From NCBI GenBank assembly GCA_017302795.1, contig JAFLCB010000010.1:34065-98064 (forward strand): DNA of 64,000 bases, written 5' to 3'. The notes under the pieces were generated by a model, which saw nothing but the letters and a program-made list of their open reading frames with translations, was not told the origin of the DNA and did not search any database. Positions 29,115-60,272 of this stretch are shown here, piece after piece. The first letter of the stretch is position 1. Every line of letters starts with the position of its first letter. The stretch is from Deltaproteobacteria bacterium (GTDB taxonomy: Bacteria; Bdellovibrionota; Bdellovibrionia; Bdellovibrionales; JAMPXM01). A program made the position numbers and the translations under genes.

Positions 29115-29190
29115 GGTCGCTTGGCGCAGTTGGTAGCGCGTTTCCTTGACATGGAAGAGGTCGCAGGTTCGAGTCCTGCAGCGACCACCA
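29115..29190 (+). tRNA. tRNA-Val (anticodon GAC), CCA encoded
   Basis: Manual cloverleaf fold. Acceptor GGTCGCT pairs with AGCGACC; D stem GCGC/GCGC; anticodon stem TTTCC/GGAAG with loop TTGACAT; T arm GCAGG-TTCGAGT-CCTGC; ends in ACCA. Confidence 0.9.
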
Positions 29191-33725: not shown

Positions 33726-34256
33726 GTGAAGTCGAAGTTTTTTGTTTCTTTTGCTAGCGCGGTTGCCATGACGTTTTTGGCTGTTTCCAGTTTCGCAAGC
33801 GATCAAAATTCGAGTCTCGAGAAACACCAAAATGCCGATGGAAGAGTGATTGTTTGGGCCGTTGGCGAGATGAATAGTCGTTTTAAGGATGGTTCTTACG
33901 ATCAGTTTGAAGGAATTCGTAAATCCATCATCTTTCAAATTGGGGCTTACCCAAACAGGCTCGGAAATTCACCCATCAGACGAGTTGGTTTTCAAGGAAC
34001 TGCTATTCGAAGTTGGTCTACAGGAACAGAAACAGTTGCTTTCAATCTTGAAAAGGCGGCGGACCAAGGAAAGAACCTCATCTGGGAATTTTCCTTCAAT
34101 ACAAGAACACAGCTTATGGGTCAGTCTTCGACCACTTATAAAGGTGCTTTCTTCGTTGAGACTCAGAATGGAATCTACTATTGGTTAAAGAACAAGGACG
34201 GAAAAGATTTTGAATTTGGAGCCGATAGTTCGATAGATCTCGCAAGTATTGAATAA
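33726..34256 (+). CDS. hypothetical secreted protein
   Basis: AGGGGG RBS and a GTG start. 176 aa with signal peptide AVAMTFLAVSSFA. Confidence 0.6.
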   Translation: MKSKFFVSFASAVAMTFLAVSSFASDQNSSLEKHQNADGRVIVWAVGEMNSRFKDGSYDQFEGIRKSIIFQIGAYPNRLGNSPIRRVGFQGTAIRSWSTGTETVAFNLEKAADQGKNLIWEFSFNTRTQLMGQSSTTYKGAFFVETQNGIYYWLKNKDGKDFEFGADSSIDLASIE

Positions 34257-34752
34257 TATCGCGGAACTTGTCTATCGGGCCTATTGCCGAGAAGGTGCAG
34301 GATGCTCGATAGCACAAGACTCCGTGATAAAAGATCGCCCATCGCGCGCTGCATACGCTTTCTGCGCCTTCTGCGAATTCGGGCGCTAAGATTGTGTCCT
34401 TCCTGTCTTTGTACGGAGATGCACAATCTCAAACTTTTGCACCTGTGGCCAAAATGCTTTTCGCCTAATAGATACGACGGGGAGACTCGAAGACGGCAGC
34501 TACCAGCTGCTCATTGCTGAGGATGTATTTCGCGATTATCAGTTCAACACCGACAACAGGATCGCGTTGCCGGTATAGTTCTGACCGGCCGGGAATTGGC
34601 TTTTTTTCAATAGCAGTTCGAACTGCAGTAAAAGTTAACTTCGTCGATTAGCTTTCACCGGGATCAATCACACTTTTAAGTTTCGCTTTTGGTGTCAATG
34701 ACTGAAAATGGGTTCCGTCATTTTGGGAGATGATCAAGGTAGGGAGAAAAAT

Positions 34753-35544
34753 ATGTTGAATACGAAAGCCACTCTGTTTTTAGCGGCGGTATTGCTTAAT
34801 TGCTTCTTTGTAGGCAGTCAGTCGCAGGCTTCTGAGACAAATGAAGATGTGAAAATCTTGAGTTCACGTTCAAGGTTGGTGACTTTCTTGCCTGTCGATT
34901 CCACAGAACGGATTATTAACAATCCGCGTGGTCCGGGGGAAGTCCTCAATACAAAATTCTGTAAAGAAGAAAGCTCGACAGTATATGGCTCGACAACTGA
35001 ATTGTTGTTCGATTGCAACTCAGCATACGCAGAGGCCCTCGGCAAACCATTGCTAAACTATTCGTCATGGTCCGCGGAAGTTCACAAATATGAAAAAGAG
35101 GGCGTTTCATATTATTCTCGCAATGGAGCCTATATTTACGAAGTCACAGCTCTGATAAAGGCGGCGGCTTTTGATTCCGAAGTGTTCACCGGCATGGGCC
35201 TTCACGCAAATACGGTGACCTGGACGGAGGCCATCTACAACAGACACTGGGGTTTCTTAGTCGGCGAGAACGATGCGAACGGCGGCTTCATTTCTAAATC
35301 GGATATCGAGAAGATGAAACGCACGGTTACTCTGAAAAACGGTGAGAAAGCCTACGCCTTTGATTTTATTCTTGCGCAAATGAGCTTTGTGGCCGGCGCA
35401 AGTAAGCCAAGCTATGTTGGTTTAACGATTCGCCCGAATGCGAAATACGAAGTTAACGGGCAAACCTACGTTCAATGGGACAATGTGCAGTTTGATTATT
35501 TCACCGGACGAAGCTTTGATCTTTCGACTGTTTTGCTTCAATAG
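34753..35544 (+). CDS. hypothetical secreted protein
   Basis: GGGAG RBS before the ATG at 34753 (MLNTKATLFLAAVLL...). About 263 aa. No family recognised. Confidence 0.6.
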   Translation: MLNTKATLFLAAVLLNCFFVGSQSQASETNEDVKILSSRSRLVTFLPVDSTERIINNPRGPGEVLNTKFCKEESSTVYGSTTELLFDCNSAYAEALGKPLLNYSSWSAEVHKYEKEGVSYYSRNGAYIYEVTALIKAAAFDSEVFTGMGLHANTVTWTEAIYNRHWGFLVGENDANGGFISKSDIEKMKRTVTLKNGEKAYAFDFILAQMSFVAGASKPSYVGLTIRPNAKYEVNGQTYVQWDNVQFDYFTGRSFDLSTVLLQ

Positions 35545-35791
35545 GAACCGTGATAGGGCCAGAGTAGATCTGGCCCCGTTTGCCCAATCTGCGCTGCAAA
35601 AGTTAGCGCATGCAGTTTCTGCGATTAGCGTAAAAGTGCAGTTGCATCTACGATCTTCACAACAGCCTCCTGAGCTTTCCCTGGCAAAGTGTCAGAACGA
35701 GGTCGCGGTGACACTTAAAACTCAGATGACTTTTTAATGGGATAAATTTCCCTAAGTAAAAAACTGCCGAATCAAATCAGCATAAATTTGT

Positions 35792-36319
35792 TTAACCGGA
35801 AGTTTCCCTGCGGTCGCTAAGAGCAAGGTCTTCTTCATGAATGCGAAACGCAAGGATTCCGATATTCAATAGTCCCCAGATCGCGGAAATTTGCCAGAAT
35901 CCGAATATCATCGGTACGACGAAAATCTCGCAGACAACTAAAGCATAGTTTGGATGTTTGATGAACTTGTAAGGACCAGTTTTCCTTAGAGGTGCACCTG
36001 GGAGCGAAATGATCTTGGTTGTAAAGTAGCTTCCGAGTGTCACGAGTATCCAAGCTCGAAATGCGGTCAGGATCGCAAAAAAGGTCAAATACATCGCCGA
36101 GATTTCGACTGCAGGATTTTGTAAAATCAAAACGAGAATCGCCACAATCCAGGTCGTGTGAAGTGCCACGATGAGTGAATAGTGTTTGGGCGAAAATTCC
36201 TTTCCACCAAGCGAAACTAGACGTTTTGTGTTTCGATTTGCCCACCAAAGTTCGACAAGCCGCTGGGAAATGATAAAAGCCATAAGGCCTAAAGCTGGAA
36301 TACTGAGTTCCATGCTCAC
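35792..36319 (-). CDS. isoprenylcysteine carboxyl methyltransferase (ICMT)-family membrane methyltransferase
   Basis: 175 aa with several TM helices and GPYKFIKHPNY (GxYxxxRHPxY-type motif). 4-nt overlap with the upstream type III PKS gene, as in bpsA-bpsB and srsA-srsB pairs. Confidence 0.75.
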   Translation of the reverse strand: MSMELSIPALGLMAFIISQRLVELWWANRNTKRLVSLGGKEFSPKHYSLIVALHTTWIVAILVLILQNPAVEISAMYLTFFAILTAFRAWILVTLGSYFTTKIISLPGAPLRKTGPYKFIKHPNYALVVCEIFVVPMIFGFWQISAIWGLLNIGILAFRIHEEDLALSDRRETSG

Positions 36320-37398
36320 GTGCCTTCCAAAAGCGTCATCGCCGTTGTGAATCCAGGGCCAAATGTCGACAAAAGAGCTCGTCCCTTAAGTCCTTCGTCC
36401 ATGGCTTTTTCAAGAACAAACAGGACAGTGGGTGCCGACATGTTGCCAAAGTTTTTTAGAATTTCACGCGATTCTTTCATTTGGCCTTCAGGCAACTGAA
36501 ATACTGACTCAAGTTCATCTATGACTTTTGCGCCACCGGGGTGACTGAGGAAGTTTTGTATATCAGAAAGTGCCAGTTTTTCTTCATCCAAAAATAAGTG
36601 CATCACTGGTCGAAAATCATTTTTAACAAGACCCGGAATTTTTCGAGAAAAAATAACTTTCAAGCCTTCGTCCGCAACGTCCCAGCCCATGATATCTAAG
36701 GAGTTCGCCCACCGATGTTCAGTTTGTGCTGATACACATAACCGGTTAGGCCCATTCGCCGCGAGATCTGAGGACTGGATAACCGCAGCTGCGGCGCCAT
36801 CAGCGAATAGCGCCGTCGCGATGATATTTTGTTTTGATAGTTCGTCGCGCATGAAATTGAGCGTGCAGAGCTCGACGACGAGAGTAAGAACCGTCCGTCC
36901 AGGTTGGGAGGCGAGTTCGGCTGCGCGATTGAGTCCGATCAATCCACCAGCGCAACCCAGTCCAAAAATCGGCGTGCGGCGAACATTACTTTTAAAAGGG
37001 ATTCGGTCCATCAATTGGGCTTCAAGGCTGGGCGTTGAGATCCCGGTGGTCGACAACATCAAGATGTCGGTGACGTCTTGCGGGCCGACCGATGCTTTCT
37101 TCATCGCTTTTCGCGCTGCTGTTTCAAGTAGATCCAATGATGTACTTACGTAGACAGCATTTCGGTCAGTCCAGGTGTGTTTTTCAAAAAACCAACTCAA
37201 TGGCACTGCAGAGTAACGGGACTCAATTGCGGTGTTGATGAATGCATTTTTAAAGGGCGAAAGGTCTTGACCGCGTTCGGCGAACAACGCTTTAGCCGCA
37301 TCGTAAACATCTAACTGCAAATGTTTGTAAACCGGGACTGCCGACGCCACAGAACGGATGACCGGTCGGTCCATCGATCGAGTTGTTTCTACTGACAC
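36316..37398 (-). CDS. type III polyketide synthase (chalcone/stilbene synthase family)
   Basis: 360 aa. Cys-His-Asn triad contexts FGLGCAGG, FLSHPGGAKV and NFGNMSAPTV, plus C-terminal FGPGFT. Confidence 0.9.
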   Translation of the reverse strand: MSVETTRSMDRPVIRSVASAVPVYKHLQLDVYDAAKALFAERGQDLSPFKNAFINTAIESRYSAVPLSWFFEKHTWTDRNAVYVSTSLDLLETAARKAMKKASVGPQDVTDILMLSTTGISTPSLEAQLMDRIPFKSNVRRTPIFGLGCAGGLIGLNRAAELASQPGRTVLTLVVELCTLNFMRDELSKQNIIATALFADGAAAAVIQSSDLAANGPNRLCVSAQTEHRWANSLDIMGWDVADEGLKVIFSRKIPGLVKNDFRPVMHLFLDEEKLALSDIQNFLSHPGGAKVIDELESVFQLPEGQMKESREILKNFGNMSAPTVLFVLEKAMDEGLKGRALLSTFGPGFTTAMTLLEGT

Positions 37399-37407
37399 GA
37401 AACCCTC

Positions 37408-38841
37408 CTACCTCAAAGGTTCAACTTCGACGTATTTTTCCCAACGACCATCCATAGATCGAAGAATCTCGTAGTATCGCGATCTTTCTCGACTCGTCAC
37501 CTGTTTCGGCTCGATTATCTGAATGACGTCGTGGGGATAGGGTAGTGACTTCAATGTTCGGTCAATTCGCTCAAGGCTCTCATTCACCCTTTTTTTGAAG
37601 CGGGCGACAAACACCTCGTAGGGCTGCTTGGCTCGATCTTCAATTGCGGACTTCAAAGCTTCACTCGCGCGGTTACCGTAAATTGCTTCAAATGCCTTTA
37701 GAGCGCCCCCATACCGATTTCCTGGGATCATTAACATGTCGAGGCCCGATGTAAATGCATTCAAATAGACCGCGTAAAGCGCGTCGCCAGACAGAGCCCC
37801 GTAGCCTCCCATCCACATTGCGTCGGACAAGCGAATACCTTTGAACCCAATTTCATCGCGAAGCATCGTCTCTAAAAGTTTCGGCGACTCGGTCGTCAAA
37901 TTCACAGAATCGTAAATCGGGAACTTTCCATGTGAGGCCATAATAGAGAATCGGTTTTCAAGTCCGTTTCGATTTACAAACTTGACGGTTTCGCGAAATG
38001 GGAAAAGGTGGCGCTCGGCTTCGCTTTCACTTTTTGCAGTTGAAACGCTTACGACGTCATGAGTATCGCCAGAATTCTGCCCAAGACCGGGGTAGTGCTT
38101 GGTCACTGCGATCACTGGCCCTGCCTCAGCCATTGCCATTGTGAAATCTGAAACGCACTTAGCCACTTCCATCGGGTCTGTCGAAACACCGCGAAGCTTA
38201 AACAAGCGACTTGCAAGATCGCCTACCAGTGTCAGGGGGTAGTTGATTCCGGCAATGGCGAGCTCCTTCCCCATGATTCGGCCGTGCAAGCGGCAAAGTT
38301 CAGTGCCATGTTTTCCCATCGATTGACCAAGCCACGCGCCATGAGCGAGATCACTAAAGCCTACGCGAAATCTTTGAATCCCAGAAATCTCCGCACCAGA
38401 TGGCGAAAGCCTTAGGCCACCACCTTCGTAATCGATTGCAAATAGAGCGGGGAGGTGGCCGTTGTTTTTTAAAATTCGTGAATATCGCGCCACGGTTTCG
38501 GCCAATTCCTTGGCACCGACTTTACTCGAGTTCCAAAAAACTAGACCGCCTGGAGGATCTCTGCGAAACGCTTCGCCGATTTGTTTTGAGTACTGAACAC
38601 TCGGTTGCTCAACGAGAAAAAGTCGCGACAATCTGCTGGAAGGTACTGCGGCAGAGCCCTGTTCATCGACAGGTGACTTCGTTAGGGACTGAGACCCGAC
38701 GTACTCTTCTGTCGGCGGAGCATCGGGCGGACTTGGAGTTAACTCGATTGTCTCTGATGAGTTCGAACACGCCGCAAAAATGAGGGGCAAAAGACCTAAA
38801 CAAACACCAAGGGTGAACCGTTGAGCAGACATACCCGGCAT
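37408..38841 (-). CDS. glycoside hydrolase family 3 lipoprotein (NagZ-like beta-N-acetylhexosaminidase)
   Basis: Lipobox IFAACS. KHYPGLGQNSGDTHD resembles the GH3 KHFPGHG motif. The stop lies 9 nt before the PKS start. Confidence 0.7.
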   Translation of the reverse strand: MPGMSAQRFTLGVCLGLLPLIFAACSNSSETIELTPSPPDAPPTEEYVGSQSLTKSPVDEQGSAAVPSSRLSRLFLVEQPSVQYSKQIGEAFRRDPPGGLVFWNSSKVGAKELAETVARYSRILKNNGHLPALFAIDYEGGGLRLSPSGAEISGIQRFRVGFSDLAHGAWLGQSMGKHGTELCRLHGRIMGKELAIAGINYPLTLVGDLASRLFKLRGVSTDPMEVAKCVSDFTMAMAEAGPVIAVTKHYPGLGQNSGDTHDVVSVSTAKSESEAERHLFPFRETVKFVNRNGLENRFSIMASHGKFPIYDSVNLTTESPKLLETMLRDEIGFKGIRLSDAMWMGGYGALSGDALYAVYLNAFTSGLDMLMIPGNRYGGALKAFEAIYGNRASEALKSAIEDRAKQPYEVFVARFKKRVNESLERIDRTLKSLPYPHDVIQIIEPKQVTSRERSRYYEILRSMDGRWEKYVEVEPLR

Positions 38842-56186: not shown

Positions 56187-56282
56187 CATCGCTCCGTGGC
56201 GATGTGGATGATCAGTCATCGCTCCGTGGCGATGTGGATGATCAGTCATCGCTCCGTGGCGATGTGGATGATCAGTCATCGC
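56187..56282. repeat. perfect 30-bp tandem repeat, 3.2 copies
   Basis: CATCGCTCCGTGGCGATGTGGATGATCAGT occurs at 56187-56216, 56217-56246 and 56247-56276, with CATCGC again at 56277-56282. Each unit contains the inverted repeat CATCGC/GCGATG. Confidence 0.98.
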
Positions 56283-57360: not shown

Positions 57361-58317
57361 TTATTTTATCGCGCGAATCTGATTGGCCACTAATCCAGTG
57401 GCTGCTTTGTTTCCTGACCAAGCTCCATAGCTAGCAACAGTCACCAGCGCCGAAACACTGAGGTTTTGTTTTTTTGCGGTCGCAAAATGAGCGGATTTTT
57501 CAGCCCACTTGTATCCGTTTGCAATCGGGGAGCGAAGCTTCAAAGCGAAAAGCGAATCTCTAAGAGCTAAACCTTGAAGCGACTCAAGAGTGTCTAGTTG
57601 CGCTTGAAATGCTGCTTTCGACTGCGGCGGAAATCCCGACGGAAAAAAGCCCGTTCCTTCTTGGCGATTCAAGGCCTCGTTGAGCCATACATCTGCCGTT
57701 TTACCCAACCCCGGATTAACTAGCAACTGGCCAATCCAATAGGCCGCAGCCGCGGCCTGCACTCGCTGGTGGGTGACCCACGATTTCATTTCTTCGCCGT
57801 TCCATCGACGCTCTCCGAGGAGGGACCGCGAACTTCGGAGGGACGCTTCGAGGCGGGGACTGAGGCGAGCGAGGCGGGCGGCCCGGTCTTCAAATTTTGC
57901 ACTTCTCAACATCAAAACTGAACGAGCGTAAAGCCCAAGAAAATGGGAAATTTCGACTGTTTTTGAATCTCCGAAAGAACCATCATCGCCCATTCTTGCG
58001 AACGCCCATTCGAAGGCCATAATTCCGCGATCGATGATGAAACCATTTCCCAGCGCGACTCCTGCTCGGATCCAGTTCCATCCTTCAAGCTGGTGACTGA
58101 CTAAGACGCGATCTGGAAATCGCCGATTCAAACCGAGCGCGCCGTCGCCAGCAGGGCGCGCCAATGGATTGATTTTTTTTGCGATCTGCTGCAGCTGAAC
58201 GTTGGCTCGCCAAAGCTTGATTTCATCTGTTTTCAAGCTCGCGGCCATGGAATCGTCGGGAGCTGAAGCGCAATTGAATGCAAAAACTAAAATCAAACAT
58301 CCGACCAGAGATTTCAT
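57361..58317 (-). CDS. hypothetical lipoprotein or secreted helical protein
   Basis: 318 aa. N-terminus LILVFAFNCAS (lipobox-like). ATGA overlap with the upstream recombinase gene. No family recognised. Confidence 0.6.
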   Translation of the reverse strand: MKSLVGCLILVFAFNCASAPDDSMAASLKTDEIKLWRANVQLQQIAKKINPLARPAGDGALGLNRRFPDRVLVSHQLEGWNWIRAGVALGNGFIIDRGIMAFEWAFARMGDDGSFGDSKTVEISHFLGLYARSVLMLRSAKFEDRAARLARLSPRLEASLRSSRSLLGERRWNGEEMKSWVTHQRVQAAAAAYWIGQLLVNPGLGKTADVWLNEALNRQEGTGFFPSGFPPQSKAAFQAQLDTLESLQGLALRDSLFALKLRSPIANGYKWAEKSAHFATAKKQNLSVSALVTVASYGAWSGNKAATGLVANQIRAIK

Positions 58318-58856
58318 AGAATCAACTTTCGTAGTTCTTGCTGCGAATAAACATAGTCGGCATAAATCATCGTATTTGTGATGTTGCGATGTCCGAGCGC
58401 GACCTGCACTAAGCGAAGATCTTTGGTCTTACGGTACAATCGAATAGCGAAAGTGTGGCGAAGTGCGTGAAACTTCTTTCCCGTTGGTCGGTACCAAACC
58501 CAAACTTGGCGAAGGCGATGATACCCAATCGGAAATAAATCTCCAGATGCCCCGGATACATGTCGATCCGAATACTCTCTTAGTCTTTCGAAAAGCCATG
58601 GAGCCAACGGGAGTTCTCGATCATTGGAACCTTTTATTCCGCGAATGAAAAGTGTTTTGTCGTAGGGATTTATATCCACTTTTCTTAAACCCAAGAGCTC
58701 GGTCGCGCGCGCACCAGTTTTTAACGCCAACCAAATCAATAAGACGTCGCGACTTTCCTCAGCAGGCCCTCTGCCCAGTAGAGCTTCGAGGCGCTCTACT
58801 TCGGGATCCAGAAGGTATTTGTTCTTATTTAGAGCATATCGTGTCGACGTTGCCAT
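58314..58856 (-). CDS. small tyrosine recombinase, catalytic domain only (FimB/FimE-like size)
   Basis: 180 aa. TGARATELLGL (Arg I), HALRHTFA (H-x-x-R) and LGHRNITNTMIYADY (His/Tyr nucleophile). No N-terminal core-binding domain. Confidence 0.8.
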   Translation of the reverse strand: MATSTRYALNKNKYLLDPEVERLEALLGRGPAEESRDVLLIWLALKTGARATELLGLRKVDINPYDKTLFIRGIKGSNDRELPLAPWLFERLREYSDRHVSGASGDLFPIGYHRLRQVWVWYRPTGKKFHALRHTFAIRLYRKTKDLRLVQVALGHRNITNTMIYADYVYSQQELRKLIL

Positions 58857-59414
58857 TGCTCATCATCATGAAAACCACGCGTCGCATTGGTCAACGCGTT
58901 TAATGGAATGGATGACATCGGTCGAATGATTGTTAGGGATGTTGAAAGCCCATTAAATTGCCGGTATCGCGATCGTGAACCAAGACAGCGAAAATCGTGT
59001 CCGAAGGGTTTAAAGCCCGCCAGCGCAGTGGATAGGAACTTGTTCGGTTCCGACCAACATTCACTCAACGCATGTGCTGTTCGTGTCCTGCGGCTAGATC
59101 GCTGTGGTGGAAATGAGTGGCTACGGTGAAATCGATAAATATATCCAACTCCGAGCCAGTCACTGCTCCTTGCGTTCGTTGGCAATTTATCGACGATAAG
59201 CCGGGAGCCGCAGTGTAGCCTCCAAGTCAGTGGCCGCCGAAAGAGGCAAACCACCCGAAGCATTTTGGCCGTTGCTCAATGATAGGCTTGGATCCCCGCC
59301 TGATGGACAGTTTTCGAAAGAAGGGGACCATGAGACACCCCCCAAAGTCCGAAAGCGTGGCAGAACGGCATTTTACGTCGATTTAAGAATAGTAAGTAAT
59401 TATAAATACTTAAT

Positions 59415-59442
59415 AGTCACACTTATAACTATAAGTGTGACT
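59415..59442. repeat. 28-bp palindrome with recombinase-core-site or operator architecture
   Basis: AGTCACACTTA-TAACTA-TAAGTGTGACT reads as 11-bp perfect inverted arms around 6 bp, or 13-bp arms around AC. It sits in an AT-rich patch between the recombinase and HTH genes. Confidence 0.9.
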
Positions 59443-59615
59443 TTGAAACATATGGCAGTCGACATTCGGACAAAACCGAATGGAAACGTGAAAAAAGCTT
59501 GAGATTTCATGGATCTAGACTTGCCAAATCTAACCGAGGCTGATTCGATGTTGTGAAACGCATCGGTTTAAGTTGTGATTTAGATTGTTTCTGATGTGTT
59601 TCACAAGGGGTCCAG

Positions 59616-60272
59616 ATGGATTTGCGAACTGAAGTTTCACCAGATACACACCCAGAAGCGCCAGCAGAAGTACCATTCGATGTGCCATTGGCAGAGGGGG
59701 CCTCATCACCACCTGGCTTCCAGCGAGCCAGATCGAGCCTTCGCCAGCGATATGAAGCAGAGGCTAGGGTCATCGAAAAACGATTGGGCGGCTTGGAATC
59801 CGTTCGGGAATCACTCGGTTTAAGCCAAAGGAAGATGGCGCAACTGCTTTTAGTTGATCCTTCGGCATGGACCAGATGGACAAGCGGGGATACAGCTCCG
59901 CCTCATGTTTGGCGTTCCCTCGCTTGGTACTTAGCACTTCAAGATAAATATCCAGCTTTGGACGCAGCATTTTGGCTTCAAGGCGTTGCACGAGCGGCGG
60001 ATGGTGATCGAATTTCTCAAAACGCAGACGAAATTCGGGCTGGGCGACTTCAAACGCGCAGTCTTGAACTCAAAGTCCAGGAACTGATGAACGAACTCGA
60101 AAGCCTGAAAGCTCGCTCAAAGGACTCAACCGCAGGACCATCGGGCGAACTCGATGAAACACAGCAAAAGGAACGACGCGCTCAGGTAGAAACTCGGGCG
60201 CTAGCCAACTTTTTTCTTGCTGTCACATTCGCGGCGCTCGGCTATGTGATCGCGGTCTATTTGGCGAAGTGA
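59616..60272 (+). CDS. tail-anchored XRE/MqsA-like helix-turn-helix protein
   Basis: 218 aa. HTH segment LGLSQRKMAQLLLVDPSAWTRWTSGDTAPPHVWRSLAWYLAL, a coiled-coil (LELKVQELMNELESLKA) and a C-terminal TM helix (FFLAVTFAALGYVIAVYLAK). Confidence 0.65.
   Translation: MDLRTEVSPDTHPEAPAEVPFDVPLAEGASSPPGFQRARSSLRQRYEAEARVIEKRLGGLESVRESLGLSQRKMAQLLLVDPSAWTRWTSGDTAPPHVWRSLAWYLALQDKYPALDAAFWLQGVARAADGDRISQNADEIRAGRLQTRSLELKVQELMNELESLKARSKDSTAGPSGELDETQQKERRAQVETRALANFFLAVTFAALGYVIAVYLAK

Follow-up and report, generated by a model that had tools for sequence, protein, structure and literature searches.

Genes and features at the locus

In the window, the 64-kb stretch of DNA that was analysed as a whole, a 759-bp spacer (58857-59615) separates two divergently oriented genes. 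Its left neighbour encodes a tyrosine recombinase of 180 aa (58314..58856, minus strand) and its right neighbour an XRE-family helix-turn-helix (HTH) protein of 218 aa (59616..60272, plus strand). An earlier note made from the letters alone had given the coordinates and sequences of the spacer correctly, and the unusual length to which it drew attention is real: this is the longest gap of the window, in which the median gap between greedily chosen long ORFs is 32.5 nt and four further gaps exceed 300 nt (417-483 nt). The genes fabH and rpmF, the latter encoding ribosomal protein L32, are located a few kb to the left of the spacer. The names fabD and fabH were taken from the translations of the ORFs, and those of L32 and fabH from Pfam labels that their counterparts carry in related loci.

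The window derives from a bacterium of the Bdellovibrionales. In the searches listed, close homologues of its genes were confined to MAGs of this order. We fetched 80 related loci via homologues of the recombinase; the count of the palindrome described below took in 86 loci. The sequence of the spacer is present in identical form in a second assembly, L001 (Logan SRR13786855), which possibly stems from the same sample as the assembly of the window. Among the 80 loci compared by blastn, a single one, L002, shares most of the spacer, and the recombinase encoded there is 92% identical to that of the window.

The recombinase is composed of a catalytic domain only, which matched PF00589 over residues 19-167 (E = 9.8e-23). 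Its nearest solved relatives are the catalytic domains of XerA and XerD. The alignments cover exclusively the C-terminal catalytic domains of such proteins (positions 93-257 of 263 in the XerA model, residues 115-263 of 4a8e), a core-binding domain is lacking and all Xer models score the protein far below their cut-offs. The idea that a missing N-terminal domain had decayed within the spacer was rejected, because 176-180 aa is likewise the length of most homologues among the 120 best listed. A literature search for a short tyrosine recombinase of Bdellovibrio yielded nothing relevant. By a consensus scan, a putative promoter for the recombinase gene was placed at 58865..58894 on the minus strand (TTGACC, 18 nt, CATGAT), ending 9 nt before the ATG; the hexamers and their spacing, from which promoter activity is predicted, are kept in L002.

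The HTH protein matched PF13560 (HTH_31) with E = 5.5e-6 and 27.0 bits, which is exactly the 27-bit cut-off, and the models HTH_3, HTH_19 and MqsA matched the same residues more weakly. As read from its sequence, the protein further contains a coiled-coil stretch and a hydrophobic C-terminal tail, a putative membrane anchor.

A decayed gene for a Tat-signal protein occupies about half of the spacer

The spacer had been described as free of ORFs. In fact, no long ORF is intact, and the three short ones pointed out at the time (58829..59263 minus, 58887..59129 plus and 59230..59502 plus) are present and have no Pfam match. However, two broken frames on the minus strand still encode a recognisable protein and had been overlooked because they are interrupted. 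The key to this finding is the L002 locus, where 1379 nt lie between the same two genes and contain an intact ORF on the recombinase strand. It encodes a protein of 334 aa (p334), the N-terminus of which reads as a twin-arginine (Tat) signal, MNSNRRRILKSAGTFVGLAG.... When p334 from L002 was compared with the window by tblastn, 77% identity over 93 residues was found for positions 59223-58945 (E = 3e-43). The translated search that the earlier note had proposed as a check did therefore uncover a degraded protein gene, and of the readings offered for the spacer the decayed gene is the one that stood.

Intact p334 genes are found at the same position in four distinct sister genomes, represented by L002, L082, L083/L084 and L085/L086. 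These have the order HTH, palindrome, p334, recombinase and p318 in common, and in L082, L083/84 and L085/86 the arrangement reads large protein, HTH, palindrome, p334, recombinase, p318, rpmF and fabH. The p334 family comprises seven clusters at 90% identity with lengths of 317-350 aa. Searches of Pfam and NCBIfam for hints at its function gave no match, and an AlphaFold model built on a 7-sequence alignment was all-beta with a mean pLDDT of 50, too poor for a fold search.

Two segments of the remnant can be told apart. Segment A (58933..59223, minus strand) corresponds to residues 53-145 of the Tat-signal protein and closes with MGFQHP-stop, a C-terminal tail acquired by fusion. Its reading frame is interrupted by a TGA at 59065-59067, and it has suffered an internal deletion of ~555 nt, the junction of which is located near 58945-58950. 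In the protein alignment with the four intact orthologues, residues ~146-327 are missing, and the break points of the deletion sit in two similar motifs, DRDTGNL and DTYNGYL. Segment B (59224..59300, minus strand) was detected as a second tblastn segment in frame -3 and represents residues ~32-51; the frameshift near 59224-59225 is the boundary between the two segments. A second deletion, visible as a gap of 93 columns, 1007-1099, in the pairwise DNA alignment with L002, has its junction at ~59291-59300, and the start codon and the Tat signal peptide are gone with it. According to the protein alignment, the remnant as a whole spans only residues about 25-145 of p334. The adjoining stretch 59301..59394 (minus strand) is conserved with L002, where it aligns upstream of the intact gene; it is what was once the 5' leader of the lost gene, including its putative promoter region.

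Where the remnant departs from its orthologues, it does so mostly at third codon positions (17/12/52 for positions 1, 2 and 3). In comparison with the pair L002 and L082 (12/5/48), the remnant shows a modest excess at positions 1 and 2, a pattern that fits recent loss of function. As the remnant is still protein-like at 77% identity, the decay is recent. The ancestor possessed a gene of ~1 kb for a twin-arginine-signal protein of 334 aa, which was located on the recombinase strand between palindrome and recombinase. In the lineage of the window, the 93-nt deletion took the start codon and the signal peptide and the ~555-nt deletion about 185 internal codons, thereby joining the DRDTGNL and DTYNGYL motifs, and one frameshift and one stop codon were gained in addition. 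Judged by translated similarity, shared position and disabling lesions, the region from 58933 to ~59300 is a pseudogene of the p334 family.

A divergent control region upstream of the HTH gene

The remainder of the spacer (~59300-59615) has the appearance of a control region. In most of the 80 loci, HTH and recombinase genes lie next to each other in divergent orientation, usually 250-550 nt apart, and a long control region between them is therefore ancestral. A version of this region, 250-550 nt in length, precedes the HTH gene in every related genome, whichever gene borders it on the opposite side. Within this region, the window contains a single copy of a perfect palindrome of 28 bp, AGTCACACTTATA-AC-TATAAGTGTGACT (59415..59442). 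It is preceded by a conserved flank at 59395..59414, for which an information profile over 56 loci gave the family consensus gTaA.aTCAa..A.TTAAt. An 11-nt motif, TCAAnnACTTA, has its first copy within this flank, in degenerate form in the case of the window. This motif abuts the palindrome in 41 of the 56 loci, and in 30 of them a second direct copy is found ~105 nt away beside the -35 hexamer of the HTH gene.

A putative sigma-70-type promoter of the HTH gene is located at 59521..59549 on the plus strand (TTGCCA, 17 nt, TTCGAT). Its -10 hexamer is weak in the window; as judged by eye, spacing and position of TTGAC/TTGCC and TAnnAT-like hexamers are shared among the loci. The putative -10 is followed, ahead of the HTH gene's ribosome-binding site, by operator-like boxes of the type TTGT-N5-ACAA (59551..59606, plus strand), one at 59551-59562, a degenerate one at 59573-59584 and a third at 59594-59606; the two outer boxes form an inverted repeat (I8). 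Across the family, the density of TGT-N5-ACA is 4.25 per kb on the side of the palindrome that faces the HTH gene versus 0.20 per kb elsewhere, a 21-fold enrichment. The boxes are concentrated at 100-160 nt from the palindrome, and at least one of them is present in 44 of 57 loci. From this arrangement we infer that the HTH protein would repress its own gene via the TGT-N5-ACA boxes, which are placed such that their occupation would block the putative promoter. When the stretch from the palindrome to the start of the HTH gene was analysed with RNAalifold, no conserved RNA structure other than the palindrome emerged.

The 28-bp palindrome is conserved and behaves as a putative DNA-level site

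The palindrome was found in at least 59 of the 86 related loci. In its arms, 83.8% of the cells are paired, as compared to 23-48% in slid controls. Two-sided changes affect 84 cells versus 38.7 in shuffles, and none of 500 shuffles reached 84. The sequence itself is conserved at the inner 10 bp and at the outer ACT/AGT, and arm positions 4-8 vary yet stay complementary. The dinucleotide in the centre is AC in 39 loci and GT in nine.

Wobble pairs are informative with respect to the nature of this element. G-T occurs 21 times when the plus strand is read and 28 times for the minus strand, i.e. there is no strand bias, so the palindrome looks like a site at the level of DNA; 79 of 663 cells hold other mismatches. 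The pattern of wobbles and mismatches argues against an RNA helix formed by one strand and for a constraint acting on DNA. A terminator or RNA reading of the palindrome was rejected on account of the unbiased wobble pairs.

Its genomic association points to the HTH gene. In seven loci (L027, L033, L039, L040, L044, L056 and L057), HTH and recombinase genes are 2-3.7 kb apart with genes of mixed orientation between them, and here the palindrome resides ~150-250 nt upstream of the HTH gene. Conversely, no such palindrome was present within 700 nt upstream of recombinase genes that lack an HTH neighbour (L014, L029 and L060). As the palindrome keeps to the HTH gene upon separation and is absent from recombinases without it, it is part of the upstream region of the HTH gene. 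The suggestion that the spacer serves as a recombination or regulatory region for the neighbouring recombinase is accordingly plausible for the distal ~300 nt only, and even there the conserved palindrome tracks the HTH gene and not the recombinase. We infer that the palindrome would be bound by a symmetric (dimeric) protein acting on the divergent promoters.

The way in which arm positions 4-8 change symmetrically, via many different base pairs, nevertheless exceeds what a simple operator of fixed specificity would predict. Template-switch correction of quasi-palindromes is an established mutational mechanism, and such 'correction', or a hairpin or cruciform, explains positions 4-8 at least as well. 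The drift of the arms could hence have any of three sources, a dimeric protein with which they co-evolve, a hairpin or cruciform under selection, or template-switch correction, and the present data do not separate the three.

The most serious competitor of a protein-bound operator is a palindrome that works as a nucleic-acid hairpin, either as an RNA stem-loop at the 5' end of a divergent transcript or as a DNA cruciform recognised by its shape. Complementary arms that persist despite sequence drift would be explained in this way: arm positions 4-8 each use three or four Watson-Crick pairs with about 72% pairing, the palindrome is the sole conserved structure returned by RNAalifold, and ATTTTGAAAA follows it in many distant loci. 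However, G-T and A-C mismatches without strand preference, together with the further mismatches, are unlike a typical RNA helix, and the innermost 10 bp and the outer ACT/AGT keep their sequence beyond what pairing would demand. Furthermore, the palindrome is positioned between putative divergent promoters and may escape transcription, and symmetric drift can also arise by the two other routes mentioned above. On balance, we regard a hairpin as unlikely.

Additional copies were sought by scanning viral and metagenome contigs with the pattern ACT-N5-CTTATAACTATAAG-N5-AGT. The viral contigs contained one match, which lies inside a phage ORF and looks like chance. Seven matches in the metagenome contigs were also chance-like; they lie in low-GC contigs, their arms are not palindromic and neither HTH nor recombinase homologues accompany them. 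Neither contig set thus yielded signs of further copies or of mobile elements bearing the site.

Is the palindrome a substrate of the recombinase?

The proximity of a recombinase gene raises the possibility that the palindrome is the core site of this minimal Xer-like enzyme and that the variable intervening DNA, here the p334 gene and in other loci different genes, reflects events at that site. If split into two arms of 11 bp and a centre of 6 bp, TAACTA, the palindrome takes on an 11 + 6 + 11 format that matches dif. Gene and site are arranged in a manner resembling single-recombinase XerS/difSL, most loci have the palindrome 60-330 nt ahead of the recombinase gene, several loci contain variable DNA between the two, and the central dinucleotide flips between AC and GT. 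In addition, the catalytic domain is closest to the models for XerA, XerC and XerD, and motifs resembling the conserved catalytic residues are visible. These points are outweighed by the behaviour of the palindrome itself, which accompanies the HTH gene where the latter and the recombinase gene are far apart and was not seen within 700 nt upstream of recombinases without an adjacent HTH gene. The genes that intervene are of mixed orientation and no second site or half-site was found flanking them, the window holds one copy of the palindrome only, and the recombinase is devoid of the N-terminal core-binding domain employed by known Xer proteins. Furthermore, Bdellovibrio bacteriovorus possesses a canonical XerC/XerD pair together with a dif of its own, TCTTCTGATAAGTTATATTATGTAACGG (PMC11318664; PMC2731167), from which the sequence of the palindrome differs. 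A recombinase site is therefore not favoured, and we consider it quite improbable.

A canonical dif site elsewhere in the window was likewise rejected, as no dif-like motif occurs in the 64 kb and the dif of B. bacteriovorus is a different sequence. The sign of the GC skew changes about 23 kb away from the spacer; a stretch of 64 kb is too short to place the terminus.

In a broader version of the same idea, palindrome, membrane-anchored XRE protein and 180-aa recombinase would form one chromosomal module for site-specific recombination (or DNA anchoring) that is conserved across Bdellovibrionales. The recombinase would act on the palindrome, possibly in the form of an extruded hairpin or cruciform, the HTH protein would supply DNA recognition in trans, and the variable genes between palindrome and recombinase, including the decayed p334 gene, would be traces of the activity of the module. 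We judge this proposal very unlikely to be correct.

Complementary segments within the pseudogene do not indicate a structured RNA

The earlier note had called the spacer helix-rich and had put forward a large structured non-coding RNA as one explanation, with nested helices at 59119..59220 stacking into one arm and GNRA-type loops nearby. The complementary segments (GGCTAC with GTAGCC, TCGATAAAT with ATTTATCGA, and CCAAC with GTTGG) are located where they were reported, as are three CGAAAG motifs. The helices, however, lie inside the best-preserved part of the coding remnant, and the stacked arm is not the preferred fold: it reaches -15.9 kcal/mol versus an MFE of -33.3 kcal/mol over the same 102 nt, and the MFE structure does without the proposed helices. 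Nor did 'helix-rich' hold as a description of this spacer in particular, since perfect 9-nt inverted repeats with loops of up to 100 nt number 48 in the window and 26 of its 84 blocks of 759 nt have at least one.

What speaks for a structured RNA, apart from the existence of the segments and motifs, is the somewhat low folding energy of 59100-59260. In comparison with shuffled sequences, folding gave z = -2.3 for the plus strand, for which five of 200 shuffles folded as well, and z = -1.5 for the minus strand. The raw MFE belongs to the lowest 5.6% of the 161-nt pieces of the window. Both values are marginal, the sequence concerned is the coding remnant and its MFE structure is not built on the proposed helices.

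In five orthologous sequences, 64% of the cells in the proposed helices are paired, a value equalled by 37 of 500 shuffles. Thirteen of 20 helix pairs depart by unpaired cells only, compensation across a whole helix does not occur and compensatory changes are almost absent, so that the helices are neither conserved nor compensated. In the five-genome DNA alignment, conservation over the helix region instead has the codon period of 3. The partly conserved TCGAT/ATCGA core coincides with conserved codons, those for IFIDF and for S/T-I-N/D. None of the CGAAAG motifs is kept as such in L002; two of them fall in the former leader, where L002 reads CGGAAG at 59315-59320 and CAAAAG at 59350-59355. 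Rfam returned nothing at gathering scores for the spacer, and a tRNA at 29115-29187 was its sole match in the whole window; for 58600-59800, there was no match even at E <= 10. With RNAalifold, the truly intergenic part of the spacer yielded the palindrome alone. Moreover, the segment in question aligns to a protein with the E-value of 3e-43 given above, and most of the spacer is missing outside the closest relatives. On these alignments, the nested helices are chance complementarity between conserved codons of the remnant, and a structured RNA has become a most improbable explanation. A general trap is apparent here: the conserved codons of a recently decayed gene can give rise to convincing nested helices and slightly low folding energies.

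An invertible promoter element of the fimS type, flipped by the short catalytic-domain-only recombinase, can practically be dismissed: size and single-domain layout of the recombinase are as in FimB/FimE-type invertases and models for tyrosine-type DNA invertases matched weakly (42 and 35.5 bits), but these scores are far below the cut-offs of ~221-222 bits and also below those of the Xer models, no pair of inverted repeats brackets parts of the spacer beyond short, imperfect matches at chance level, and flank, palindrome and promoter have one orientation throughout the related loci, in which only the 2-nt centre flips.

Interpretation of the spacer

Taken together, the spacer is very probably a composite, about half of which is the wreck of a gene for a secreted protein, while the rest is a divergent control region with a conserved 28-bp palindrome. 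The appropriate annotation is a pseudogene plus a promoter/operator region and not an RNA gene. As such, the finding is ordinary.

The part worth following up is the combination of the 28-bp palindrome with a very short recombinase and an HTH protein with a membrane tail. In at least 80 Bdellovibrionales genomes, this trio occurs as a conserved set; the predatory Bdellovibrio belongs to the same order. If its members work together, the trio would constitute an undescribed module for DNA transactions; if they do not, the palindrome would be an ordinary operator. For now, we regard the trio of palindrome, XRE protein and minimal recombinase as an unexplained and modestly interesting by-product of the analysis.

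Comparison with known systems

FimB/FimE invertases and their fimS element have in common with the present locus a short recombinase of the catalytic domain only, encoded beside a non-coding region that bears promoters. They differ in that bracketing inverted repeats are lacking here, the recombinase resembles invertase models less than Xer models, and related loci give no sign of two orientations.

In the single-recombinase Xer systems XerS/difSL, XerH/difH and archaeal XerA/dif, the parallel lies in a chromosomally encoded Xer-like catalytic domain and a nearby 28-bp palindrome of the format 11 + 6 + 11. Unlike in these systems, the recombinase has only 180 aa and no core-binding domain, and the site tracks the HTH gene and has perfectly symmetric arms. 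Furthermore, B. bacteriovorus, a cultured member of the order, is already equipped with XerCD and a canonical dif.

For the remnant, the counterpart is the bacterial unitary pseudogene. The parent p334 family is unusual in this respect, as it is uncharacterised, has neither a Pfam nor an NCBIfam model and consists of seven 90%-identity clusters from close relatives only. In common with such pseudogenes, the remnant has translated similarity to syntenic intact orthologues, its divergence is dominated by third codon positions, and it exhibits a lost start codon, internal deletions, a frameshift and an in-frame stop.

The control region can be compared with autoregulated XRE repressors of the phage cI/Cro and MqsA types. 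Two traits set the locus apart from these, namely the putative coiled coil and hydrophobic C-terminal tail that are read from the sequence of the HTH protein, and the additional presence, about 100 nt upstream of the boxes, of a palindrome that is unrelated to them and much longer. As in these repressors, the HTH gene is divergent from its neighbour and has two or three TGT-N5-ACA dyad boxes downstream of the putative -10 and ahead of its start codon. The locus thus combines the XRE domain and the repeated dyad boxes of an autoregulated XRE repressor with a promoter in a predicted position.

Apparent gene turnover between the palindrome and the recombinase gene

The gene that was lost from the spacer encoded a member of a family of 317-350 aa proteins with a Tat signal (L002, the closest related locus, with an intact copy at 1272-2276; family proteins P0121-P0127). 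This family appears to be made up of two similar halves, carrying the motifs DRDTGNL and DTYNGYL, which were brought together by the large deletion in the window. No model for the family was present in Pfam or NCBIfam, and an AlphaFold model is all-beta, with low confidence (pLDDT 50). In other genomes, too, the interval from the palindrome to the recombinase gene is oversized or has taken up additional genes (L012, L034, L042 and L071, where the recombinase-HTH gap measures 658-1061 nt), and it seems to be a hot spot of gene gain and loss.

Recombinase gene and its surroundings

The tyrosine recombinase (window 58314-58856, minus strand) is conserved in at least 80 Bdellovibrionales genomes with 61-92% identity, and its neighbours usually include rpmF and fabH (loci L002-L086). 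It is only 176-180 aa long and consists of the catalytic domain alone, whose nearest relatives are the catalytic domains of XerA/XerD. A literature search on the short Bdellovibrio tyrosine recombinase returned nothing relevant. The promoter-like sequence TTGACC-18-CATGAT (58865-58894, minus strand), which is kept in L002, has its 3' end 9 nt ahead of the recombinase ATG. Transcription from this putative promoter would yield an almost leaderless mRNA, and expression of the recombinase would then not depend on the gene that has decayed upstream of it.

Between rpmF and the fabH start, the window holds a perfect tandem repeat with 3.2 copies of a 30-nt unit (56187-56282; CATCGCTCCGTGGCGATGTGGATGATCAGT). 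Near 36 kb (~34000-38000) a positive GC skew gives way to a negative one, which could reflect a replication terminus or gene orientation only; a canonical dif-like motif was not found within the 64-kb window.

Palindrome and XRE-type HTH gene

The perfect 28-bp palindrome (window 59415-59442), an element shared by at least 59 of the 86 loci, goes with the HTH gene and not with the recombinase. Positions 4-8 of its arms vary among genomes with complementarity retained. Among 51 distinct variants, 39 carry AC at the 2-nt centre and 9 carry GT. The 11-nt motif TCAAnnACTTA occurs in two direct-orientation copies ~105 nt apart (ten helical turns), one adjoining the palindrome and the other the -35 element of the putative HTH promoter. 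This pair is clear in L037, L053, L064 and L079 and degenerate in the window (59401-59411 and ~59503-59513).

The XRE-type HTH protein itself (window 59616-60272, plus strand) resembles a coiled coil in its middle part, and its C-terminus forms a hydrophobic tail (…FFLAVTFAALGYVIAVYLAK), which suggests a tail-anchored membrane protein. Such a combination of middle and tail is an unusual architecture among transcription regulators.
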